Source of the DNA: Armatimonadota bacterium
GTDB lineage: Bacteria > Vulcanimicrobiota > JACPDS01 > JBDRKI01
DNA length: 64,000 bases
Direction: 5' to 3'
Assembly (NCBI GenBank): GCA_043814095.1
Contig: JBDRKI010000102.1
Location: 15,716-79,715, forward strand
Shown here: in pieces, positions 36,871-51,575 of the stretch
Layout of the letters: every line of letters begins with the position of its first letter
Numbering within the stretch: the first letter of the stretch is position 1
The notes under the pieces: generated by a model
What the model saw: the letters and a program-made list of their open reading frames with translations, nothing else
Databases searched by the model: none
Told to the model about the DNA's origin: nothing
Translations under genes and position numbers: made by a program

Positions 36871-37204
36871 AGATTTTCACCATCCTTGTTTTTTACTGTT
36901 CGATGCTTTAGGGGAGTATTTCTCTGTCCGGCTCCAATCTCCTCTTTATTCGTCAAAGATATGTTTGTCGAAATTGGGGGAGGGGGATCTGCAGAATAAA
37001 TAACGGCTTGGAATAATGCTTTTTTAGATAAGGGTCTATGGCCCGGGCTTATATGCCCTTATAATGATATAAATAAATATTTCTACATATAATATTACAT
37101 ATAATATAATGATAATTAAGTATCTCTATTCGCCTATTCAAATCTTTAATTAAAATATTTCAGCCCCTTATCTTCCATCCTTAAAATACCACTATACCCT
37201 CCAA

Positions 37205-37295
37205 TACATATATGTCTAAAGGCAAATTTTAAACCCCTTAAAACGCATTTAAATGCGCCGGATTTTTACGGTATTTTACCCCTGCCGGTTTTATA
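37205..37295 (+). repeat. Repeat A copy 1 (ACATATATGTCTAAA..AACCCC.TTAAAA.GCA..TAAATGCG..GGA.TTT..GCCGG..TTTT), intergenic
   Basis: ~60-90-bp element with about 75% identity to copy 2 at 37641. No ORF over 20 aa. Confidence 0.5.
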
Positions 37296-37487
37296 TGATT
37301 TATTAACCCTGTTTCTGTTTTTTTTAATTATTTGATATGTTAACTTATTTTTTGAAAATTAATTTTAATTTGTATTAAATTTATTTTTATGGATATTTTT
37401 TAAAATATATTTTATTGAAGATATAAAAACATACGAATAAATTTTTATGAATATAAACCAGCAGAATGTAAAATAATAAAAATATCA

Positions 37488-37540
37488 ATAGGGGAATTTA
37501 AAAATTTTCAAACTCCCCTATCTGTTTTTGTGTTTTTTCG
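37488..37540. terminator. Hairpin B copy 1 (ATAGGGGAATTT..AAACTCCCCTAT) followed by a T-rich tail
   Basis: 12-bp stem with one mismatch and a 9-nt loop, then TCTGTTTTTGTGTTTTTTCG. Near-identical to copy 2. Confidence 0.5.
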
Positions 37541-37640
37541 TAATGATCTATATTTTCAAATATGACATATCCGGCAAATGCTTGATATATATAGCATTAA
37601 TAGTGATTATCTCTCAGGTTTGATTTTTAATTAAGCGGTA

Positions 37641-37735
37641 TACATATATGCCTAAATCCGGATTTCAACCCCATTAAAAGGCAAATAAATGCGTCAGAAT
37701 TTGGAGCTGATTTCATTTTTCGCCGGCTCGGTTTT
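37641..37735 (+). repeat. Repeat A copy 2
   Basis: TACATATATGCCTAAA..CAACCCCATTAAAAGGCAAATAAATGCGTCAGAATTT..CGCCGGCTCGGTTTTT. Aligns with copy 1. Confidence 0.5.
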
Positions 37736-37772
37736 TGTCTTAAACTTTTATACAGATAATGCAAAAATAATA

Positions 37773-37820
37773 ATAGGGGAATTTATTTTTTTTAAAAAAA
37801 ACTCCCCTATCTGAATTTGT
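37773..37820. terminator. Hairpin B copy 2 (ATAGGGGAATTT..ACTCCCCTAT), probable terminator of the DUF167 gene
   Basis: Same GGGGA/TCCCC stem as copy 1, with an AT loop containing T8A8. Sits 29 nt downstream of the DUF167 stop on the minus strand. Confidence 0.5.
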
Positions 37821-37848
37821 GTATGTTTATGATTTATTTTTTTGTATT

Positions 37849-38133
37849 TTACATGTTCTTTATTTTTTTTATTAAATTTTCTCTGCTAATTTTAATTCCA
37901 ATTAATTTGTTCTGAACGGTTTCGCCTTTTAAAATTATAAGATCGGATTTTCTTATGTCTAATTTTTTTGATAACAGATCTATAACAGCCTTGTTTGCTT
38001 TTCCTTTTTCAGGCGCAGATGTAACTTTAATATAAAATTTGCTATCCCTTAAATCAATCTCGTTTTTCCTTGATTTAGGATTAACCTTAACTTCACAAGT
38101 TACATATTCTTTATATATACCTGTTTTTATCAT
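37849..38133 (-). CDS. DUF167 / YggU-family small protein
   Basis: 94 aa with a V..KVNPKSRKNEI.. signature reminiscent of UPF0235/YggU proteins. Confidence 0.65.
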   Translation of the reverse strand: MIKTGIYKEYVTCEVKVNPKSRKNEIDLRDSKFYIKVTSAPEKGKANKAVIDLLSKKLDIRKSDLIILKGETVQNKLIGIKISRENLIKKIKNM

Positions 38134-38205
38134 TATTTTATCCTTATATCTATATATTTCTTTCTAAGATTAAAAAATCCTTGTTTTATGCAATTTTTTA
38201 CCCCT

Positions 38206-38255
38206 AAAATGTTAACAATTTTGTAACATTTTGGCAATATTTTGGTAACATTACT
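38206..38255 (+). promoter_or_regulatory. Putative operator: imperfect palindrome AAAATGTTAAC-N6-GTAACATTTT followed by GTAACATTTTGG / CAATATTTTGG / TAACATTACTGG direct repeats, upstream of a TATAAT box
   Basis: Seen directly in the sequence. A TATAAT box lies at 38260-38265, and the gene start is at 38305. Confidence 0.35.
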
Positions 38256-38304
38256 GGATTATAATATAGATATAGAAAAAAAAACAGATCCTGGGGGGTA
38301 AAAT

Positions 38305-38757
38305 ATGGGAAGTTTCAATATAATAAATAGTAATATCAGGACAGGTTATACAAGCGCAATGACAAAATTAAGCACCGAGAAAAAGAAACAAAAGGCGGAA
38401 GAAATTTTAAACAAGCTTTCTGATTTAATAAATAAAGGTGTAATAACTACCAAAAATTATGGTTCTCTTAACAGATGTTTAGAAGATTATAACTGCAGGT
38501 TAAGATTTAAACATACCACAGATAACGATTTGCTTGTCGGTTACAGTTATAAGCTGAAGGACGGCGAAGGATATGTATATTATTCATTCAGGAAAAAAAG
38601 TTATGAAGTTTGTTATATAAAACAGGATGGGTATTCTTTCCGCAGAGCCGAAGATTGTGAAAAAAGATCTCTTAATTCAAAAATAGTAGCTACACATTCA
38701 AAACTTGAAAAAGAAGGTGTAATGCAAAGGCTGGAACAAATGGCTAAAAAATATTAA
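38305..38757 (+). CDS. Hypothetical protein (150 aa)
   Basis: ORF with a G-rich RBS (GGGGGGTAAAAT ATG). No recognised family. Its stop overlaps the rnc stop convergently. Confidence 0.5.
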   Translation: MGSFNIINSNIRTGYTSAMTKLSTEKKKQKAEEILNKLSDLINKGVITTKNYGSLNRCLEDYNCRLRFKHTTDNDLLVGYSYKLKDGEGYVYYSFRKKSYEVCYIKQDGYSFRRAEDCEKRSLNSKIVATHSKLEKEGVMQRLEQMAKKY

Positions 38758-39467
38758 TCAAATTTTTCCAGCGCCTGCTTTGCGGCAAGCTGCTCCGCTT
38801 CTTTTTTGGTACTTGATATGCCTTTTCCCAATTTTTTGTCCCTGTGGTAAACCGCTACTTCAAATGTTTTCTGATGAGCGGGTCCAGATTCTTTTAAAGT
38901 TCTGTATTCCGGAAGTTCTTTGTATTTATCCTGGATTTTTTCCTGCAGTATGCTCTTGTAATCAAAATCCTGTGTCATACTTTCTTTTATAATATTTTTA
39001 TAGAAATAAATGACGAATTTATGTGTAATATCTAATCCGGCATCAAGGTATATGGCTCCTATTAAAGCTTCAAAGGCATCTGCAAGGATAGACTGCCGCT
39101 GCCTGCCTCCCCCTGCTTCCTCTCCCCTGCCTAGAAAAAGATAATTTCCCAGTTTTAATTTTTTCGCTATATCAAATAATATACTGCCGCTTACTATACG
39201 TGATTTGCATTTAGAAATATCTCCCACGACAAGTTTTGGGTATTTGTCGTAAAGGTAGCGGGTTATAACAAGGTTAAGGACAGAATCACCTAGAAATTCA
39301 AGTTTTTCGTAACTTAAATTTTTATTTATCTTGTTTTCATAGCAGTAGGATTCGTGTGTAAGCGCCTGAACATATATATCTTTATTGCCGGGCGTAAATC
39401 CGAATTTTTTGCTTAAATATTCCAGCAGCTTATCTTCGGATTTTCTTTTTAATTTATTTTTATTCAA
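38754..39467 (-). CDS. rnc: Ribonuclease III
   Basis: RNase III signature ERLEFLGDSVL and a C-terminal dsRBD. Confidence 0.9.
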   Translation of the reverse strand: MNKNKLKRKSEDKLLEYLSKKFGFTPGNKDIYVQALTHESYCYENKINKNLSYEKLEFLGDSVLNLVITRYLYDKYPKLVVGDISKCKSRIVSGSILFDIAKKLKLGNYLFLGRGEEAGGGRQRQSILADAFEALIGAIYLDAGLDITHKFVIYFYKNIIKESMTQDFDYKSILQEKIQDKYKELPEYRTLKESGPAHQKTFEVAVYHRDKKLGKGISSTKKEAEQLAAKQALEKFD

Positions 39468-40859: not shown

Positions 40860-41837
40860 ATGAAAAAGTACTTAGTTTTAACTATTTTTCTAGTATTTGC
40901 CCTTTCTGTTTTTGTTTACGCTAATAATAGCTTATCCGCGGAAGAATATCAAGTCATACCCAATAATAATGAGATCATCCATGACTGTAATTCCACAGTA
41001 TCTATATTGTTTAATAAATCTTTATTAAATAATATAGAAATTAATAATACTAAAATCTTTCTTAATAGTAAAGAGATATCAAAAAAATGCTTATATAACG
41101 GAAATTCTATAACTTATCTGCCTATTATTTCTCTTCCCGCCGGCATAAATCAGGCAGAGGCCTTTATTGTGTATAAAGACGGCGGAGAAAAATCGGTTAA
41201 ATGGACATTTAATGTGATATCCAAGGATAATATAACTTCTGTAGAGCATGACGCAGTTGATACATTAATTATAAATGAGGATCTGAAAGTAACTATCAAA
41301 GGCATAGAAGGAGCCCGAGCAAGTTTTGACATAGGAGACAAAATAAAGAATATACCTTTAAAGGAAACATCTCCGGGTATCTATGAAGGTGTTTACAAAA
41401 TTAAGCCTATTGATAATTTCGGTTCTGAAGACATAATAGGACACTTAAAATTCAATACAGAACTTGAATCTTCATGCAAAGCCGAGAAGCAGGCTGATAT
41501 AAGGGGTGATTTGTTTCTAGTAAAAATTATTTCTCCGAAACCTGAAGACAGGGTCGGCAAATCATTTGAGATAATCGGCAGGACAAAACCTCATGCCCTT
41601 GTAATGATATCTTCTTTAATGTGGCTTAAAAATATACCTATTGTTAATGAATTAAAAGCAACCACAGGCGGATATGAAGCCAAAGCGGATGAAAACGGTA
41701 TATTTAAAATGAAATACGGTATACCTTTTGAATTAAAAGATTCCACATATACATTAAAGTTTTTAGGGAAGGATGATAAAGGCAATTATTCCATTCCTAA
41801 TACCGTAACTGTAACTACCCGTGGAGGGAAAGACTAA
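40860..41837 (+). CDS. Secreted hypothetical protein with a signal peptide, probably beta-rich / Ig-like
   Basis: N-terminal MKKYLVLTIFLVFALSVFVYA signal sequence. No recognised catalytic motif. Confidence 0.55.
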   Translation: MKKYLVLTIFLVFALSVFVYANNSLSAEEYQVIPNNNEIIHDCNSTVSILFNKSLLNNIEINNTKIFLNSKEISKKCLYNGNSITYLPIISLPAGINQAEAFIVYKDGGEKSVKWTFNVISKDNITSVEHDAVDTLIINEDLKVTIKGIEGARASFDIGDKIKNIPLKETSPGIYEGVYKIKPIDNFGSEDIIGHLKFNTELESSCKAEKQADIRGDLFLVKIISPKPEDRVGKSFEIIGRTKPHALVMISSLMWLKNIPIVNELKATTGGYEAKADENGIFKMKYGIPFELKDSTYTLKFLGKDDKGNYSIPNTVTVTTRGGKD

Positions 41838-42049
41838 TCTCCCCTATCAATTGTTTTTTTTTAAAAAAAATAAATTTATTAACAATTTGTTAATAATCTG
41901 TTAATATAATTATTATATAATTAAACCAAGGAAAATTTTTATATTCTCTTATCAGAATATTTTACCGTCTTTTGAAGCTATACAGGAGAACTCTTTACCT
42001 TTTTTGGAATACAGATTAATTATTTCATAGTTTGTATCTTTAGGAGTTA

Positions 42050-42220
42050 TTATTTCCGCTTTATAAATGCCGTTATTAATTCTTCCCGAATTAATGGGGG
42101 ATTAAGAAAATACTGGGTAACGCCTTTATCCAGAATCTGGCTCTTATAATCTCCTGTGTTATTTGACACCAGAATTGCTCCGGGTTTAATTGCGGCAGAA
42201 TTTACTGGGAAGTTAAGCAT
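42050..42220 (-). CDS. Small hypothetical protein (56 aa) downstream of the 155-aa gene; not in the ORF track
   Basis: Minus-strand ORF MLNFPVNSAAIKPGAILVSNNTGDYKSQILDKGVTQYFLNPPLIREELITAFIKRK with GGAG 9 nt upstream of the ATG. Confidence 0.4.
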   Translation of the reverse strand: MLNFPVNSAAIKPGAILVSNNTGDYKSQILDKGVTQYFLNPPLIREELITAFIKRK

Positions 42221-42250
42221 AATTTATTACTCCGTAAGTATTGGATTATA

Positions 42251-42718
42251 TTAATTTTCTTCTTCTTTAGGTTCTAAAAGCTTTACTCCGTCCTGGATGG
42301 CTTTTAAAAATTCTTCGTGTTTTTCTGATTTTTCTTTATCGGATATTATGCAGTTCAGACATGTAATAAGTTCTTCTTTTTCTTCCGCGGTTACCTGTCT
42401 GTAGCTTTTCTGTTCATATGTACATACAGAAGCTGGGCCTGTTCTGTTAGCAGTCCCTGTATAAGCGTCTTTACTGAAATAAATGTCAGGGTTTTTGAAT
42501 TTTTTGTCTTTTGTCTGTTTGACTATATAATTAAACTTGTCGGATCCCAAAGTAATAGTAAGCTTAACTTCTTTAGTTTTTACGGCGATATTCTTGGTTA
42601 TTACTAAAGTGGCTTTTTTATCGCCTTCTAAATCGTAGTTAATCTGTTCTTTTTTCTCTACGCTGGGCCTGCTATAATATGTACTTGTTGCTCCCTGTGC
42701 AATAATAGTATTGTCCAT
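42251..42718 (-). CDS. Hypothetical protein (155 aa)
   Basis: Charged protein with three Cys. No recognised family. Confidence 0.5.
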   Translation of the reverse strand: MDNTIIAQGATSTYYSRPSVEKKEQINYDLEGDKKATLVITKNIAVKTKEVKLTITLGSDKFNYIVKQTKDKKFKNPDIYFSKDAYTGTANRTGPASVCTYEQKSYRQVTAEEKEELITCLNCIISDKEKSEKHEEFLKAIQDGVKLLEPKEEEN

Positions 42719-42791
42719 TTTTCCCCTCCTTAAAATGATAGCATAGGTAAATTTTATTAATTATTGGCAATAAAGTCAATGGAATACAGGC

Positions 42792-42823
42792 GTGAAAATG
42801 TTAACTTTTTGTTAACTTTTCAC
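42792..42823. promoter_or_regulatory. Putative operator palindrome GTGAAAATGTTAAC-TTTTT-GTTAACTTTTCAC, ~75 bp upstream of the 155-aa gene
   Basis: 13/14-bp inverted repeat. It shares the AAAATGTTAAC core with the site at 38206. Confidence 0.35.
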
Positions 42824-42871
42824 TCCATTAATAAATTATATTAATACTAATTATGTAAAATAAGGGATTTT

Positions 42872-43891
42872 TTACAATAATGATATCTGGCTGTTCTGAG
42901 GTACTTCTAATCCCAAGTGTTCATAAGCGGATATCCCCGCGCATCTGCCTCTTGAAGTTTTGTTTATAAAGCCGAGCTGGATAAGATACGGTTCGTAAAC
43001 CTGTTCAATATTTTCAGACTCTTCATTTACGGCATGTGCTAAAGTTTCTATCCCCACAGGGCCGCCGTTAAATTTTTCTATAATAAAATGCATTATCTTT
43101 ATATCCAGCTCATCCAACCCCTTAGAATCAATCCCTAATTTATAAAGGGAGTCGTTTGCTATGGTAGAATCAATAATACCTGTTTCCGCAACCTGAGCAA
43201 AATCCCTTACTCTTTTAAGAAGGCGGTTTGCGACCCTTGGCGTTCCCCTTGATCTATGGGCTATTATATAGCCGGCATCTTCTTCTACTTCAATATCCAG
43301 TATTCTGCTTGAACGCATAATAATGTCTTTCAGGTTCTCAGGGGAGTAAAAGTCAAGGTTGAAATTTATGCCAAAACGGTTGCGCAAGGGGGAAGTCAGC
43401 ATGCCGGAGCGGGTCGTTGCGCCTATTAAAGTAAATTTAGGAAGCTTTATCTTAGCCGATTTTACGACAGAACTCTGTGATATAACTCTGTCAAAGGTAA
43501 AATCTTCCATTGCCGAATAAAGTATCTCTTCTGTTGCACGGTTTAAACGGTGTATCTCATCTATGAATAAAACATCATTCTCTTTTAAGTTTTTTAAAAG
43601 CACAAGCAGGTCAATTGGTCTTTCAATCGCGGGACCGGATGTTGCTTTTATATCAACACCTATTTCATTGGCAATTATATTTGACAGGGTGGTTTTTCCA
43701 AGGCCCGGAGGCCCGCATAATAATACATGATCAAGAGCTTCCTGCCTCATACCTGCGGCTTTTATGAATACCCTTAAATTTTCTTTGATATTTTCCTGGC
43801 CCACGTATTCATCTAATGTCTGAGGCCGCAAGGAGACTTCAAAATTTGCTTCTTCTTCCCCTCTCGCGGGGGATATGATGCGTTCTTCCAT
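42872..43891 (-). CDS. ruvB: Holliday junction branch migration helicase RuvB
   Basis: AAA+ Walker A GPPGLGKTT, Walker B and sensor motifs. Conserved RuvB throughout. Start probably MEERII at 43891. Confidence 0.92.
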   Translation of the reverse strand: MEERIISPARGEEEANFEVSLRPQTLDEYVGQENIKENLRVFIKAAGMRQEALDHVLLCGPPGLGKTTLSNIIANEIGVDIKATSGPAIERPIDLLVLLKNLKENDVLFIDEIHRLNRATEEILYSAMEDFTFDRVISQSSVVKSAKIKLPKFTLIGATTRSGMLTSPLRNRFGINFNLDFYSPENLKDIIMRSSRILDIEVEEDAGYIIAHRSRGTPRVANRLLKRVRDFAQVAETGIIDSTIANDSLYKLGIDSKGLDELDIKIMHFIIEKFNGGPVGIETLAHAVNEESENIEQVYEPYLIQLGFINKTSRGRCAGISAYEHLGLEVPQNSQISLL

Positions 43892-48768: not shown

Positions 48769-50079
48769 TTACACTGTTTTTCCGTAGAAATCATATAATT
48801 TGGTTTTCACAACTTCAGCTTTTACTATATCTCCGGCTTTTATATTCTTAGCAGATTTTACATGAAAATTTCTGTCTATTTCAGGCGCGTCAAGCCGGGT
48901 TCTTCCAAGGTATTTGTAGGAGTTGCGGCTACCAGAGGCGACTTCATCAATCATTATATCATATACTTTTTTAATTTCAAGTCTGTTTTTCTTTTTTAAT
49001 ATTTCCTGCTGGAGATACATAATTTCTTCCATCCTGTGCTGTTTTACCGTTTCGGGCACCTGTTTTTTAAGGTTATACGATGAAGTCCCCTCTTCGTTTG
49101 AATATATAAAAACACCCAGATGATCAAATTTTATCTTTTTCATGAATTTTATAAGGGATTCAAAATCTTTATTTGTTTCACCCGGGAACCCCGTTATAAA
49201 TGTGGTTCGTATAGCACTAGCGGGGATCTTATTTCTTATCTTGTCTATCAGTTTTTCATAACCGTACGCATCAAGAGGTCTTTTCATAAGACGGAGTATC
49301 TTCTTTTCGGAATGCTGGAGCGGGATATCAAAATAATTGCAGATTTTATCCTCATTTTTTATGAAATCTATAAGTTCGTCATTTATATATGTGGGATACA
49401 TATATAATATTCTTATCCATTCCAACCCTTTAATTTTACATATTTTTTTCAAAAGAGGTATTAAAGACGGTTTATTATATATATCCATCCCGTAGGATAA
49501 AGAATTCTGAGCTATAATGTTTAACTCTTTAACTCCCCGTGAGACTTTTTTACGGGCGGCTTTAACCAGGGTTTCTATCTTTTCACTTTTAAGCTTTCCT
49601 CTTAGCTTTGGGATAATACAATATGAACAGGAATGATTGCACCCGTCAGCGACCCTTAAATATGACCAGTGGCCGGGAGTTAATGAAGCCACGCGGGTTA
49701 CCGCGCGTTTTAAGGAGAATATTTTGTCAAAATTATTATAATCCGTGATTTTTATCCACTTATTAACTTCAGGGAGTTTGTCTTTAATAATATCGGCGTA
49801 TCTCTGGGCTATACACCCGAGAACAACCAGCTCTTTATCCGTATTTTTTGTGTAATCGGAGAGTTCTAAAATTTTATTAATTGATTCTGTCTTCGCGTCT
49901 TCAATAAAACAGCAGGTATTTACAAATAAAAAATCCGCATCCTCCGGTTTTTCAGTTTTTTTAAAGTCTGCGGATATAAGTTTTGATATGATATTTTCGG
50001 AATCCACCAGGTTTTTAGCGCAACCCAGGCTTTCAATATAGAATCTGTTCTTTTTTGATTTAGTTCTCATTTTCTTCAA
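48769..50079 (-). CDS. rimO: Radical-SAM methylthiotransferase of the RimO/MiaB family (likely RimO)
   Basis: N-terminal LGCAKNLVDSE, a radical-SAM CxxxCxxC (CNHSCSYC) and a C-terminal TRAM domain. 436 aa. Confidence 0.7.
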   Translation of the reverse strand: MKKMRTKSKKNRFYIESLGCAKNLVDSENIISKLISADFKKTEKPEDADFLFVNTCCFIEDAKTESINKILELSDYTKNTDKELVVLGCIAQRYADIIKDKLPEVNKWIKITDYNNFDKIFSLKRAVTRVASLTPGHWSYLRVADGCNHSCSYCIIPKLRGKLKSEKIETLVKAARKKVSRGVKELNIIAQNSLSYGMDIYNKPSLIPLLKKICKIKGLEWIRILYMYPTYINDELIDFIKNEDKICNYFDIPLQHSEKKILRLMKRPLDAYGYEKLIDKIRNKIPASAIRTTFITGFPGETNKDFESLIKFMKKIKFDHLGVFIYSNEEGTSSYNLKKQVPETVKQHRMEEIMYLQQEILKKKNRLEIKKVYDIMIDEVASGSRNSYKYLGRTRLDAPEIDRNFHVKSAKNIKAGDIVKAEVVKTKLYDFYGKTV

Positions 50080-50737
50080 TTGCTGCCTGCAGCTCGGCTT
50101 CGTCTACATGGCGGATTATTTCCTGCTCGTTATCATGTTCTATTTCTTCAAGTTTTTCAAGCTGTTCTTTTATGTCAACTTTAGGCAGTTCGTTTAAATC
50201 TTTAAGATGGAAATAATGCAAAAATTCGCTTGTTGTTGCATATAATGTTGGTTTGCCTATTACAGGAGCTTTGCCTGCTTCTTTTATAAGTTTTTTATCC
50301 ACGAGTTTATTTATTATTTTATCTACATTAACCCCTCTTATATCTTCTATCTGGGCGCGTGTGACCGGCTGGTTAAAAGCTATAATTGCCAGGGTCTCAA
50401 GGGCCGCCCTTGATAAAAACTGTTTACCGCAGGCTTTCAGGAGTTTTTCAACAGAATCGGAGCATTTTGCCGAAGTTGTCATTTTATATTCACCGGCGGC
50501 GGTAACTATATTTATGCCTCTCGGTTCGTATTCAAGGATTAATTCTTCTAAAACATCTTCGGCTTCCTGTATCTTTAATTCAGCTGTATCAGCTATTTCT
50601 TTTAAAGAAAGAGGTTTTGCGGATATAAAAAGGAGAGATTCTATTATATATTTAGGATCATCGGTTTGTTCACTTTTATATGTAATTTCTGGATTTTCTT
50701 CAATTTTTTCTTCTGCGACACAGATATTTTCCTGCAT
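50060..50737 (-). CDS. scpB: Segregation and condensation protein B (ScpB)
   Basis: Winged-helix ScpB blocks (IIESLLFIS..PLSLKEIA.., second wHTH). Overlaps the rimO start. Confidence 0.8.
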   Translation of the reverse strand: MQENICVAEEKIEENPEITYKSEQTDDPKYIIESLLFISAKPLSLKEIADTAELKIQEAEDVLEELILEYEPRGINIVTAAGEYKMTTSAKCSDSVEKLLKACGKQFLSRAALETLAIIAFNQPVTRAQIEDIRGVNVDKIINKLVDKKLIKEAGKAPVIGKPTLYATTSEFLHYFHLKDLNELPKVDIKEQLEKLEEIEHDNEQEIIRHVDEAELQAAIEENEN

Positions 50738-50906
50738 AGGCGCCTCCGTATTAAATTAAGTTCTTCTCAGGCTTTCTTTTTATTATAATACTCTTGAGGC
50801 TATTTTTTGTCAATAAATTTATATTTTTTCTTTGAAATAAAAAAGGATTTGTATTAAATAAGGGGAATATATTTATGTTAAATAAATGTTAAAGGGGGCT
50901 AAACTT

Positions 50907-51575
50907 ATGGCCATGTGTCCTAAATGCGGAACTGATAATGATAATACCAGGCTGACATGCTTCAGATGCGGTATGGTGCTTCCGAAACTGTCTCTGGAAG
51001 AATTAGAGTCAAAATCGGAAGTAAATGTCGTTATAGATGAAAACCTTGAGACAAAAGACGTTGTAAAAGCTTCGGACTGTATATTCCTTTCCTCATTAAA
51101 GGAAATAAAGGATCTTGTTGATTCCGGGCAGTGGGAAGTTGAGGATATCCAGAATAAGCTGGACGCGGTTAAAAAAGAAAGCAACTATATCCTTGACCTT
51201 ATTAACAGCTTCTCGGATGAAGAAAAAAGCTGGATGACAACCGGTCTTTCAAAGATTGACACCTCATACGATAAATTCCAGGAATCTTTCGGCAAGTTTG
51301 ACCAGTTCTTAAATACCCAGGATGCCTCACTGCTTGAAGACGGCATGAAAGTGGCTACAGAAGCAAGCCATATGCTTTTAGAAGGCATAAATGAAGCCCA
51401 GGACGAGCTGGGTGTTGAAGAAGAAAAAATATCCGAAGAACTTGGCAATGTGGAAGGGCTGGATTTAGACGAAGATTTTGACCTTGATGAAGACGAAGAC
51501 TTTGATTTAGATGATATGGATTTTGATTCCGATGAATCTATGGAAGAGGAAGAAGCAGAAGAAGAATATAAATAA
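50907..51575 (+). CDS. Hypothetical zinc-ribbon protein with a highly acidic C-terminal tail
   Basis: N-terminal CPKCG..CFRCG zinc ribbon and a D/E-rich C-terminus (LDLDEDFDLDEDEDFDLDDMDFDSDE..). Opposite strand to the flanking scpA and scpB. Confidence 0.5.
   Translation: MAMCPKCGTDNDNTRLTCFRCGMVLPKLSLEELESKSEVNVVIDENLETKDVVKASDCIFLSSLKEIKDLVDSGQWEVEDIQNKLDAVKKESNYILDLINSFSDEEKSWMTTGLSKIDTSYDKFQESFGKFDQFLNTQDASLLEDGMKVATEASHMLLEGINEAQDELGVEEEKISEELGNVEGLDLDEDFDLDEDEDFDLDDMDFDSDESMEEEEAEEEYK

Follow-up and report, generated by a model that had tools for sequence, protein, structure and literature searches.

The interval between ruvB and a convergent gene for a secreted protein likely contains one real, lineage-restricted gene, which encodes a 155-aa protein, and the decayed stump of a second gene of the 278-type described below, both lodged in an insertion slot behind a promoter that appears to be regulated through GTTAACA repeats. 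The locus exemplifies the ordinary turnover of a gene family; it does not represent a new two-gene module. All positions refer to the window, i.e., the whole stretch of 64 kb that was analyzed. NCBI annotates both ORFs of the locus as hypothetical proteins of an 'Armatimonadota bacterium' MAG, and their positions and translations in the ORF list agree with those quoted in an earlier note on this DNA, as do the 30-nt gap and the GGAG ribosome-binding site (RBS) that are seen in the sequence before the smaller ORF. The features of the locus, in the order of transcription, are:

42792..42823, minus strand: upstream box GTGAAAA-GTTAACA-AAAA-GTTAACA-TTTTCAC (GTGAAAAGTTAACAAAAAGTTAACATTTTCAC)
42751..42779, minus strand: sigma-70-type promoter, TTGACT (42774-42779), 17-nt spacer, TAAAAT (42751-42756)
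42251..42718, minus strand: 155-aa ORF, NCBI ABIH00_09930, hypothetical protein, with RBS AGGAGG at 42725-42730
42221..42250, minus strand: 30-nt spacer from the stop of the 155-aa ORF to the ATG of the 56-aa ORF, with GGAG at 42230-42233
42050..42220, minus strand: 56-aa ORF, NCBI ABIH00_09925; ancestral frame only in codons 1 to ~41 (42220 to ~42098)
42096..42100, minus strand: C5 homopolymer, position of the frame break in a codon-by-codon read-out of both frames
41952..42098, minus strand: continuation of the stump in the -1 frame, PINSGRINNGIYKAEIITPKDTNYEIINLYSKKGKEFSCIASKDGKIF, then TGA TAA
41877-41904, minus strand: degenerate second box TTAACA-N5-TTAACA-N5-TTAATA, with a -35-like TTGATA at 41845-41850

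Gene order and the ruvB-downstream family

The slot that harbors these genes is located between ruvB and the convergent secreted-protein gene (325 aa in the window, 320 aa in the relatives), and the flanking gene order is common to the window, L045 and L085-87, L089, and L090. On four metagenome contigs of a sister lineage, with RuvB 80% identical, the same slot is occupied by a gene for a 278/279-aa protein, so that the order reads ruvB, 278/279-aa gene, convergent 320-aa secreted-protein gene, fabF, rnc and DUF167. In L090, ruvB is followed by a gene for a 317-aa paralog, a 30-nt spacer and the 278-aa gene. In the more distant, high-GC L002 and L046, no gene separates ruvB from the convergent 325-like gene; this empty slot indicates that the low-GC subclade acquired the family by insertion.

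The family, defined from P0004, P0005, P0006 and L090:1409-2362 (the 278/279-aa and 317-aa proteins, all from metagenome contigs), is undescribed and unnamed, lacks a Pfam entry and is confined to one small clade. Among three 278-aa orthologs, dN/dS is 0.18-0.36, compared to 0.04-0.05 for ruvB; on the strength of these values the family is counted as real, and the constraint on it is relaxed relative to ruvB. The AlphaFold2 models tentatively suggest that the family is built of modules consisting of four beta-strands and a helical hairpin, the caution being due to the low confidence of the models (pLDDT 50 for the 155-aa protein and 41 for the 279-aa protein). Comparison at the sequence level gives no significant sign of internal duplication in the 279-aa and 317-aa proteins (p 0.14-0.21). 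A phage origin was also considered, and neither tblastn against 50,697 phage records nor a pattern scan of IMG/VR produced a match.

The 56-aa ORF as a probable frameshifted gene fragment

Judging by its similarity to the family, the 56-aa ORF is best read as the 5' stump of a 278-type paralog, frameshifted and truncated, rather than as a small-protein gene. The 278/279-aa proteins align with the stump in tblastn at 44% identity over 59-60 aa (E 2e-8 to 6e-8), and the 317-aa protein at 49% identity over 35 aa (E 3e-6). In its own frame, the ORF matches only residues 21-49 of the family. Both the homology and the coding signal change frame at the C5 run at 42096-42100, where a single added C would restore ...YFLNPPINSGRI...; the corrected 89-aa product aligns without a break to residues 21-92 of the 278-aa protein (43% identity over 75 aa, E 1e-9). 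Taken across the 56-aa frame and the -1 frame, the stump contains the N-terminal motif of the family, ...KG(L/V)T(R/Q)Y...P(I)..NSG(R)I...(K)AEI(V/I)...Y.I(L/I)N(I/L)(Y/F)(T/S)K. The -1 frame extends beyond the stop of the 56-aa ORF into seemingly intergenic DNA, and the segment 41952..42098 has a coding score of +0.080/nt in this frame and a negative one in the 56-aa frame. The first 40 codons of the ORF score +0.042/nt; the ORF as a whole scores -0.012/nt, below all trusted genes and at a level that 27% of spurious ORFs reach or exceed. The last ~15 codons of the ORF (LIREELITAFIKRK) are an out-of-frame read-through with respect to both homology and coding signal.

The corrected frame terminates at about residue 95 of the 278-317 of the family proteins, a point within strand four of the first module, as predicted by the low-confidence model. 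The stop is followed by 115 nt of AT-rich, non-homologous DNA with a relic copy of the promoter, which indicates a deletion or rearrangement.

The earlier note took the 56-aa ORF to be an intact small gene and named lack of conservation as the finding that would speak against this. The ORF as such was not found in L045, L085-87, L089 or L090, and at its position the closest relatives have either a full-length 278-aa gene or nothing. The proposed two-gene unit has a counterpart in L090, where the 317-aa and 278-aa genes form a tandem pair with the 30-nt spacer. The two spacers are of the same length, identical in 17 of the 30 positions without gaps, and have in common a TATAAT directly 3' of the stop of the first gene. 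That a frameshifted remnant was called a 56-aa CDS can be attributed to the absence of a reference homolog.

It appears highly improbable that the two ORFs comprise a functional module in which the 56-aa protein is a bona fide partner of the 155-aa protein, as in a regulator-effector or toxin-antitoxin-like pair. The ORF does have a good RBS (GGAG, 9 nt 5' of the ATG) at a distance of 30 nt from the upstream gene, and NCBI lists it as a CDS, so that its translation is still conceivable. However, it is missing from all four related arrangements, its 3' third is not coding-like, and its sequence is accounted for by the frameshifted N-terminus of a family protein. Moreover, a word-indexed search of 5.8 billion proteins with both ORFs retrieved only the queries themselves, and neither protein has a match in PADLOC, Pfam or PHROGs.

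A different alternative is that the shift in the C run is an assembly or sequencing error and that the second gene is alive, encoding a family N-terminal protein of ~89 aa in an operon for a 'split' protein, in which the C-terminal-type module would precede the N-terminal-type piece. Homopolymers are classic sites of sequencing errors, and the gene has retained its RBS and ATG. 3' of the break, the coding score reaches the level of real genes, which fits a very recent mutation and an assembly error alike, and the two-gene operon of L090 has a spacer of the identical 30 nt. Against this possibility, which we consider unlikely, the corrected frame would still yield a truncated domain, and it ends at non-homologous DNA with the relic promoter copy. 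In addition, the ~50 other genes of the window that were scanned are long and unbroken, with no further frameshift among them, which is evidence against a frameshift-prone assembly. Exact-protein look-ups with the 155-aa protein, the 325-aa protein and RuvC retrieved no second contig of the same strain. We infer that the stump reflects real gene decay and not an assembly error. Programmed -1 frameshifting at T-CCC-CCA is very unlikely because this sequence deviates from the canonical X-XXY-YYZ slippery site and conservation does not support it.

The 155-aa protein

In contrast to its neighbor, the 155-aa ORF has the appearance of a genuine gene, albeit of no known family. It behaves as a real gene in that it combines a gene-like coding score (0.071/nt, within the span of the housekeeping genes of the window, with the annotated frame clearly the best of the six) with a strong RBS (AGGAGG, 6 nt 5' of the ATG) and a promoter. 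The product is a charged, soluble protein without a signal peptide; it has the three cysteines that had been pointed out, C99, C120 and C123, the latter two in a CLNC motif. Four beta-strands (residues 21-69), a loop and two helices (residues 111-146) are predicted.

Sequence and structure searches failed to place the protein. Scans of the 155-, 56-, 150-, 279- and 317-aa proteins against Pfam, NCBIfam, PHROGs and PADLOC gave only sub-threshold noise, in agreement with the earlier note, which had recognized no family for either protein of the locus. The noise consisted of SSL_OB, CBM26, FPP and Aga_SIR2; SSL_OB (PF09199) was rejected as an assignment for the 155-aa protein at 17.4 bits, below the cut-off of 27. 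No match below E 0.09 was obtained in sequence searches of PDB, and the Foldseek comparison that had been advised, run with the AlphaFold2 model of the 155-aa protein, returned PDB matches at E 0.12 or worse, including Whirly/PUR/PC4-type beta4-alpha proteins, and led to no family assignment. An exhaustive phmmer search of 1.8 billion representatives retrieved, besides the query, a single TPR-repeat protein and no member of the ruvB-downstream family. This match (E 9.5e-5 to a 1201-aa NB-ARC/TPR protein) was rejected as an indication of TPR identity: it is judged generic as it involves one helical hairpin of the 155-aa protein and a repeat protein, and the Pfam TPR models do not match the 155-aa protein.

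Nevertheless, comparison with the family suggests that the 155-aa protein is probably a short member that corresponds to the C-terminal part of the larger proteins. A tblastn search with the family against the 155-aa gene gives E 0.002, and Smith-Waterman shuffles against the C-terminal part give p 0.0036 for the 317-aa protein and p 0.013 for the 279-aa protein. Alignment of the family with the 155-aa protein by hhalign yields E 0.002 over the C-terminal hairpin, yet a probability of only 14%. At their very C-termini, the family proteins have a hairpin motif, T.(E/D)E....I...I......E(Y/F).....I, which the 155-aa protein resembles weakly, and the C-termini are alike (...LKAIQDGVKLLEPK compared with ...LKTIRYGVIDITPK). 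The order of the secondary structure elements, four strands followed by two helices, is also common to the low-confidence models of the 155-aa protein and the family. The N-terminal motif of the family is missing from the 155-aa protein.

Conversely, the 155-aa gene could be an unrelated orphan, of de novo or horizontal origin, that replaced the first family gene, with the C-terminal likeness arising by compositional chance. Pairwise BLASTP against the family is weak (E 0.3-0.5) and not significant, the CLNC motif is not conserved in the family, and the same C-terminal segment produced the NB-ARC/TPR match, so generic similarity between helical hairpins can yield scores of this kind. Such an origin appears rather unlikely, however, given that three methods converge on one co-linear, end-to-end C-terminal alignment, that the predicted order of structural elements agrees with the family, and that the gene has its promoter, its upstream box and the 30 nt of spacer that follow it in common with the family locus.

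Promoter, GTTAACA repeats and a second orphan gene

The sequence TTGACT-17-TAAAAT scores best among the promoter candidates of the region, matching at 10 of 12 positions, with the -10 hexamer ending 32 nt 5' of the ATG of the 155-aa gene; the promoters of L089 and L090, TTGACT-17-TAGAAT, have the same layout. The upstream box consists of two 11-nt direct-repeat units, each with 7 conserved and 4 A/T positions, in which GTTAACA occupies 42810-42816 and 42799-42805. It ends 19 nt 5' of the -35 hexamer (18-19 nt across the window, L089 and L090), and its units are centered at about -69 and -58 with respect to the predicted start site. A scan for the exact 18-mer GTTAACA-N4-GTTAACA gave a single match in the window and none in 100 dinucleotide shuffles; among the 90 loci that were fetched, the 18-mer is found only 5' of the family gene (L045/85/86/87/88 and L090). 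Across the loci, the units are arranged head-to-tail in 2 to 5 copies and in a fixed register with the -10 element. The claim of a palindromic operator stands insofar as the GTTAAC palindrome is present and the element is specific and conserved, but its location 5' of the -35 hexamer is unlike that of a classical operator; an activator site, or direct-repeat box, fits this position better than an operator overlapping the promoter. Since GTTAAC itself is palindromic, a dimeric helix-turn-helix protein that recognizes inverted repeats may be an alternative binder.

A degenerate copy of the box (41845..41904) is located 3' of the stump, immediately next to where the convergent 325-aa gene ends. 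In blastn, this copy is 81% identical over 36 nt to the box region of L090; according to the ORF list of the window, no gene follows it on the minus strand, and it is probably a relic. An interpretation as an SOS box was rejected: no GTTAACA pairs were found 5' of ruvC, ruvA, ruvB or yebC.

A second locus in the window, outside the unit, has a similar array of hexamers in front of an orphan gene:

38212..38757, plus strand: phased hexamer array followed by an orphan 150-aa gene (38305-38757)
38212, 38223, 38233, 38245, plus strand: hexamers TTAACA, GTAACA, GGCAAT and GTAACA, respectively; -10 element TATAAT at 38260-38265

The hexamers of this promoter are centered at -57.5, -46.5, -36.5 and -24.5, in a register identical to that of the family-gene promoter of L045, and the distance from the -10 element to the ATG is 39 nt in both. 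In these two promoters, the repeats extend into the -35 region and there is no good -35 hexamer. The 150-aa gene is missing from the syntenic rnc-DUF167 junction of L089; its product has no significant similarity to the family and resembles the 155-aa protein only at the N-terminus (p 0.017).

A candidate regulator was sought within the window. The annotated parts (about two-thirds of the genes) contain no response-regulator gene, and a TTTAACA-N4-TTTAACA sequence at 50876-50892 was rejected as a regulator locus because its neighbors are scpB and a MiaB-like gene rather than a two-component system.

The relatives L089 and L090 further have a structured leader of ~125 nt with an intrinsic terminator (helices CUGAUUUG...CAAAUCA / CGAGG...CCCG), whereas the window lacks such a leader. 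An Rfam scan of the window yielded no match; a resemblance of the L089 and L090 leaders to the caiA RNA was below the threshold and was rejected as a generic terminator-plus-RBS arrangement.

Proposed history of the locus and its significance

In the scenario that we favor, the interval between ruvB and the secreted-protein gene would be a lineage-specific insertion slot, occupied by a fast-evolving, taxonomically restricted family of soluble proteins. The 155-aa gene probably corresponds to the first, 317-type gene of L090, cut down to a short N-terminus and the C-terminal module. The second, 278-type gene would have lost one base in the C run at 42096-42100 together with its 3' two-thirds, and the 56-aa ORF would be the part of the frame that is still open behind the original RBS and ATG. 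Transcription would begin at the sigma-70-type promoter, and an OmpR/PhoB-type winged-helix response regulator, or a similar protein that binds phased sites, would bind the GTTAACA(A/T)4 units and activate it under some condition, by analogy with known boxes of this type. The orphan 150-aa gene at 38305 would be under the control of this factor as well.

A much broader interpretation is that the 155-, 278- and 317-aa proteins and the 150-aa orphan form a small regulon under a phased GTTAACA response regulator and a leader RNA, and represent a new functional class. Under this interpretation, which we regard as quite improbable, the conserved hairpin and terminator of the sister-lineage leaders might sense a ligand and provide a second layer of control, and the family, born or captured in a convergent intergenic region, could for instance have a structural or nucleic-acid-binding role in the response to stress or nutrients.

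The main value of these observations lies in annotation: the deposited CDS ABIH00_09925 is best taken as a pseudogene fragment, and the apparent intergenic DNA 3' of the 56-aa ORF is decayed coding sequence. The locus neither opens nor settles a larger biological question. It is a small but clean example of turnover of a restricted family in a fixed slot, with insertion, duplication, shortening and decay, and the 11-nt GTTAACA element can be used to search for the regulon and its regulator in a poorly sampled, low-GC lineage labeled Armatimonadota.

Comparison with known systems

One of the closest comparisons is with the 278/317-aa family itself, which shares with the window its slot, its GTTAACA box and its TTGACT-17-TA(A/G)AAT promoter. 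The first gene in the window is half as long (155 vs 317 aa) and lacks the TRYPF...NSGRI...KAEI N-terminal region, and the second is frameshifted and truncated, whereas the 278-aa gene of the relatives is full-length.

The GTTAACA repeats form a putative box with the geometry of the OmpR/PhoB type. In Bacillus subtilis, PhoP is associated with TT(A/T/C)ACA repeats. The PHO box is composed of direct-repeat units of 11 nt that are bound head-to-tail, each with 7 positions conserved and 4 variable (PMC4415409), and the window likewise has tandem 11-nt units (7 conserved positions, GTTAACA, and 4 A/T) in register with the promoter. The WalR box, TGTWAH-N5-TGTWAH (PMC9210968), is matched exactly in L090 (TGTTAA-CAAAT-TGTTAA) and with one mismatch per half-site in the window (AGTTAA-N5-AGTTAA). 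This motif, however, has a low information content in AT-rich genomes, and its consensus has 522 one-mismatch intergenic matches in the C. difficile genome (PMC9210968), so that agreement with the consensus does little to identify a particular regulator. Unlike in the known OmpR/PhoB-type systems, the downstream genes here are orphans rather than genes for phosphate or cell-wall functions.

The layout is superficially similar to that of type II toxin-antitoxin and other defense modules, with two small co-directional ORFs behind a palindrome-containing element. The differences are that the second ORF is a gene fragment, that the element is located 5' of the -35 hexamer and not over the promoter, and that the relatives have a single 278-aa gene at this position. 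No toxin, antitoxin or defense family was identified: PADLOC has no match to the 155-aa or the 56-aa protein, and the Pfam and PHROGs hits do not rise above noise.

The locus also resembles orphan genes and unrecognized pseudogene fragments that are annotated as short hypothetical CDSs. Like these, the genes are confined to a clade, and both their length (155, 278 and 317 aa) and copy number vary between close relatives. In this respect the locus is typical, and what it has in addition is the conserved box and, in the relatives, the leader RNA.

The ORF pair downstream of ruvB

Between ruvB and the convergent gene for a 325-aa secreted protein, two ORFs are encoded on the same strand with a spacing of 30 nt:

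42251..42718, minus strand: 155-aa ORF (ORF list), AGGAGG 6 nt before the ATG
42050..42220, minus strand: 56-aa ORF (ORF list), GGAG 9 nt before the ATG

The two ORFs, the gap, the GGAG ribosome-binding site (RBS) and an upstream element are all as described in the earlier note, according to the ORF list and the minus-strand sequence. NCBI labels both products hypothetical proteins (ABIH00_09930 and ABIH00_09925, respectively, of the 'Armatimonadota bacterium' MAG). That neither belongs to a recognizable family is borne out by Pfam, NCBIfam, PHROGs and PADLOC, all of which are empty for both, and among 5.8 billion clustered proteins each matches only itself. An exhaustive phmmer search with the 155-aa protein as query, covering 1.8 billion representatives, yielded one additional, weak match, the TPR repeats of an NB-ARC/TPR protein of 1201 aa (E = 9.5e-5); we regard this match as a generic helical-hairpin resemblance and reject a TPR relationship.

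A ruvB-associated family in related genomes

Because the two proteins themselves retrieved nothing, syntenic DNA was collected by way of the adjacent RuvB. Among the species-representative genomes, the closest RuvB proteins, from Xenobia, Armatimonadetes and Bacillota MAGs, are only 60% identical, which indicates that the lineage of the window (38% GC; MAG label Armatimonadota) is poorly sampled; by itself, this goes a long way to explaining why its small genes appear as 'orphans'. Closer relatives (RuvB 80% identical) are only a handful of metagenome contigs. A contig with an 80% identical RuvB from the metagenome collection, L045, shares the upstream order asnS-yebC-ruvC-ruvA-ruvB with the window and carries, 3' of ruvB, a 279-aa ORF without a Pfam domain. 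A search with the 279-aa protein led to three clusters, P0004 (100%), P0005 (87%) and P0006 (82%), and the contigs that encode them reveal the complete gene neighbourhood. In L089, another contig of this sister lineage, ruvB is followed by a 278-aa gene, a convergent 320-aa gene, fabF, rnc, DUF167 and, later, xerC; this order matches that of the window, and the 320-aa protein is 57% identical to the 325-aa secreted protein. The order in a third contig, L090, is ruvB, a 317-aa gene, 30 nt, a 278-aa gene and a convergent 320-aa gene, where the 317-aa and 278-aa proteins are paralogues (BLASTP E = 3e-9, full length).

In the more distant, high-GC loci L002 and L046, the ruvB stop abuts the end of the convergent 325-like gene, and this empty slot shows the family to be an insertion, confined to the low-GC subclade, into a long-established intergenic region between convergent genes. 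The pairing of ruvB with a convergent homologue of the secreted Ig-like 325-aa protein (23-30% identical) reaches high-GC (65%) Armatimonadetes-labelled MAGs and is unusually stable for two functionally unrelated genes; the junction is found at:

L002:2849-2957, ruvB/325-like convergent junction
L046:5966-6074, ruvB/325-like convergent junction (also present in L048)

The three 278-aa orthologues have dN/dS values of 0.18-0.36 versus 0.04-0.05 for ruvB of the same contigs; selection on them is purifying but relaxed, and the family encodes real proteins. Between L045, L089 and L090, the 278-aa gene has a dS of 0.17-0.35, roughly half the value for the neighbouring ruvB (0.63-0.78), and its dN/dS is 4-7 times that of ruvB. 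This pattern could stem from constraint at the nucleotide level or from recent exchange of the cassette among lineages.

The 56-aa ORF as the probable stump of a 278-type paralogue

When the family proteins were compared by tblastn with window positions 41700-42900, one clearly significant match was obtained: residues 36-93 of the 278/279-aa proteins align with 42140->41967 on the minus strand (44% identity, E = 2e-8 to 6e-8), and residues 63-95 of the 317-aa protein with 42059->41955 (49% identity, E = 3e-6). Relative to the 56-aa ORF, this match lies in the -1 frame, and it continues for 95 nt past the stop of the ORF; in its own frame, the ORF covers only family residues 21-49 (LVSNNTGDYKSQILDKGVTQYFLNPPL versus LVSQNSDRPEYLPEKGLTRYPFATPI). 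Codon-by-codon read-out places the frame switch at a run of five C (42096-42100), where one extra C gives the reading ...YFLNPPINSGRINNGIYKAEIITPKDTNYEIINLYSKKGKEFSCIASKDGKIF, followed by TGA TAA. The 'repaired' 89-aa product aligns without a break across the junction with the 278-aa protein (residues 21-92; 43% identity over 75 aa, E = 1e-9); it also aligns with the 317-aa protein (residues 16-95; E = 7e-8).

Coding potential was tested independently with a 3-periodic Markov model, for which 38 long genes of the window served as the training set. Over its full length, the 56-aa ORF scores -0.012/nt, below all trusted genes (0.037-0.103); 27% of spurious ORFs of comparable length do as well or better. 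Codons 1-40 score +0.042/nt; from 42098 to 41957, the -1 frame scores +0.080/nt and the 56-aa frame is negative. The repaired frame stops at family position ~95 of 278-317, within the fourth strand of the first module as predicted in a low-confidence model, and the 115 nt 3' of this stop are AT-rich, show no homology to the family and contain a degenerate second copy of the upstream box (41877-41904) and a -35-like TTGATA. We conclude that the 56-aa ORF, which the earlier note took for an intact small gene, is the still-open 5' end of a frameshifted, 3'-truncated 278-type paralogue, given the frameshifted homology and an own-frame score below that of every trusted gene. The switch falls in a homopolymer, where a sequencing or assembly error could have created it; such an error is an improbable source of the frameshift, and real decay is favoured because about 50 other genes in the window are long and uninterrupted.

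The 155-aa ORF is a probable family member

The 155-aa ORF scores 0.071/nt, with the annotated frame far ahead of the other five, and its coding score, RBS and predicted promoter are all gene-like. The protein sequence contains no signal peptide and no hydrophobic segment. Comparison with a four-sequence family alignment by hhalign (E = 0.002, probability 14%) paired residues 107-141 with the C-terminal helical hairpin of the family, and tblastn aligned residues 209-316 of the 317-aa protein with residues 47-151 (E = 0.002). In Smith-Waterman shuffles, the C-terminal parts of the 317-aa and 279-aa proteins gave p = 0.0036 and p = 0.013, respectively, and the N-terminal parts p > 0.07. The extreme C-termini are also alike (...EEFLKAIQDGVKLLEPK versus ...KELLKTIRYGVIDITPK). 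Overall, the similarity to the family is weak but consistent. AlphaFold2 models, both of low confidence, show four strands followed by two helices in the 155-aa protein (pLDDT 50) and two such four-strand/two-helix units in the 279-aa protein (pLDDT 41).

The 155-aa gene and the L090 family locus have in common the slot, the upstream repeat box, the promoter and the 30-nt spacer, which is identical at 17/30 positions and begins with TATAAT in both. The best match of the 155-aa protein is the 317-aa type (first gene in L090) and that of the stump is the 278-aa type (second gene). The weak similarity, the order of elements in the models and the shared context together indicate that the 155-aa protein is probably a shortened 317-type family member. 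Its CLNC motif is not conserved among family members and probably does not serve the family at large as a metal or redox site. Of the proposed two-gene regulated module, one live orphan gene and a conserved upstream direct-repeat box are left, the second ORF being the stump of a dead paralogue.

Searches of PDB sequences were empty. Foldseek matches of the low-confidence 155-aa model, with E = 0.12 or worse, include some Whirly/PUR/PC4 beta4-alpha proteins, and there is no phage or defence signal at the locus. The most that can be said is that the gene appears to encode a conditionally expressed, soluble, clade-specific protein. The locus represents ordinary turnover of a taxonomically restricted gene family, and ABIH00_09925 should be flagged as a pseudogene fragment.

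Promoters and GTTAACA repeats

The region upstream of the 155-aa gene, and a second, degenerate repeat site, contain the following elements:

42792-42823, minus strand: upstream element GTGAAAAGTTAACAAAAAGTTAACATTTTCAC (minus-strand sequence)
42779-42751, minus strand: best promoter match, TTGACT-17-TAAAAT
41877-41904, minus strand: degenerate second box copy, TTAACA-N5-TTAACA-N5-TTAATA, 81% identity with the box region of L090 across 36 nt

The window contains a single exact GTTAACA-N4-GTTAACA, 100 dinucleotide shuffles yield none, and among the 90 fetched loci the exact 18-mer is found upstream of family genes only. The two heptamers, centred at about -58 and -69, end 19 nt 5' of the -35 hexamer; the same heptamers lie 18-19 nt 5' of TTGACT-17-TAGAAT in L089 (one copy) and L090 (two). 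In L045, there are five hexamers with an 11-nt period (TTAACA three times, GTAACA and TTAACT), centred at -68.5, -57.5, -46.5, -35.5 and -24.5 relative to a TGnTATGAT extended -10. From the predicted promoter, the 155-aa gene has a leader of ~25 nt without an Rfam match, and no terminator separates the two ORFs. The degenerate copy is accompanied by a -35-like TTGATA (whole region 41845-41904, minus strand); the two extend into the 3' end of the 325-aa gene, and no gene is present that they could drive. This copy is possibly a relic of a duplication or deletion that truncated the second paralogue.

A similar array precedes a second orphan gene:

38305-38757, plus strand: CDS of the orphan 150-aa gene (array 38212-38250; region 38134-38757)

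This gene lies antisense between DUF167 (37849-38133, minus strand) and rnc (38754-39467, minus strand), which overlap directly in L089, indicating that it is an insertion. Its promoter contains TTAACA, GTAACA, GGCAAT and GTAACA centred at -57.5, -46.5, -36.5 and -24.5, and 39 nt separate the -10 hexamer from the ATG, as at the L045 family gene; the register of this phased TTAACA/GTAACA array is exactly that of the L045 family promoter. The 150-aa protein belongs to no known family and is not significantly similar to the ruvB-downstream proteins; a resemblance to the 155-aa protein (p = 0.017) is confined to the N-terminal ~25 aa. The 11-nt period recurs in a weaker direct repeat, TTTAACATTTATTTAACA (50876-50892), which lies in the divergent region between scpB (50060-50737, minus strand) and a zinc-ribbon protein gene (50886-51575, plus strand), overlaps the RBS and start of the latter and is probably due to chance.

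The ~1-kb stretch 36871-37848 contains no convincing gene and no Rfam or tRNA matches. It includes a duplicated unit, with a 63-nt repeat (37204-37266 and 37640-37702, 78% identical) and a pair of nearly identical hairpins (AATAGGGGAATTT...AAACTCCCCTATCTG), located approximately at 37488-37525 and 37773-37813. In L089, the equivalent position holds an NTP_transf_2/HepT toxin-antitoxin pair and, after it, a long stretch of intergenic DNA.

Leader RNA in relatives

In two relatives, the family gene is preceded by a ~125-nt 5' leader, which is absent from the window and L045:

L089:1215-1340, 5' leader
L090:1280-1410, 5' leader

In both leaders, a conserved hairpin, CUGAUUUG-AUAAC-CGAGG...CCCG-AAA-CAA(A/G)UCA, whose loop varies and which shows one compatible A/G change, is followed by an A-rich linker and by an intrinsic terminator immediately 5' of the RBS. 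Their folding beats shuffles (z = -2.1 and -3.5), and Rfam gives nothing beyond a generic terminator/RBS resemblance to caiA that stays below threshold (24-30 bits versus 55.5). The leader is a candidate attenuator or riboswitch-like element, and the combination of hairpin and terminator suggests tight control of family-gene expression in the sister lineages. This unclassified leader RNA and the GTTAACA regulon are two modest leads from the locus.

Comparison with known regulatory boxes

The upstream element had been described as a palindromic operator. A conserved element is indeed present, and GTTAAC is its own complement, so that inverted-repeat instead of direct-repeat binding is conceivable; the position of the box, 5' of an intact -35/-10 pair, speaks against classical repression and argues for a putative activation or UP-like role. 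No regulator gene is present in the annotated parts of the window. The hexamer of Bacillus subtilis PhoP is TT(A/T/C)ACA, which the box sequence fits. PHO boxes of OmpR/PhoB-type response regulators consist of head-to-tail units of 7 conserved and 4 variable nt, phased with the promoter (PMC4415409), and the units in the window are likewise tandem, of 7 conserved and 4 variable nt, and in promoter phase. The WalR consensus, TGTWAH-N5-TGTWAH (PMC9210968), is matched exactly in L090 and with one mismatch per half-site in the window, although this consensus is information-poor in AT-rich DNA. The likenesses to OmpR/PhoB, WalR and PhoP boxes are no more than leads.
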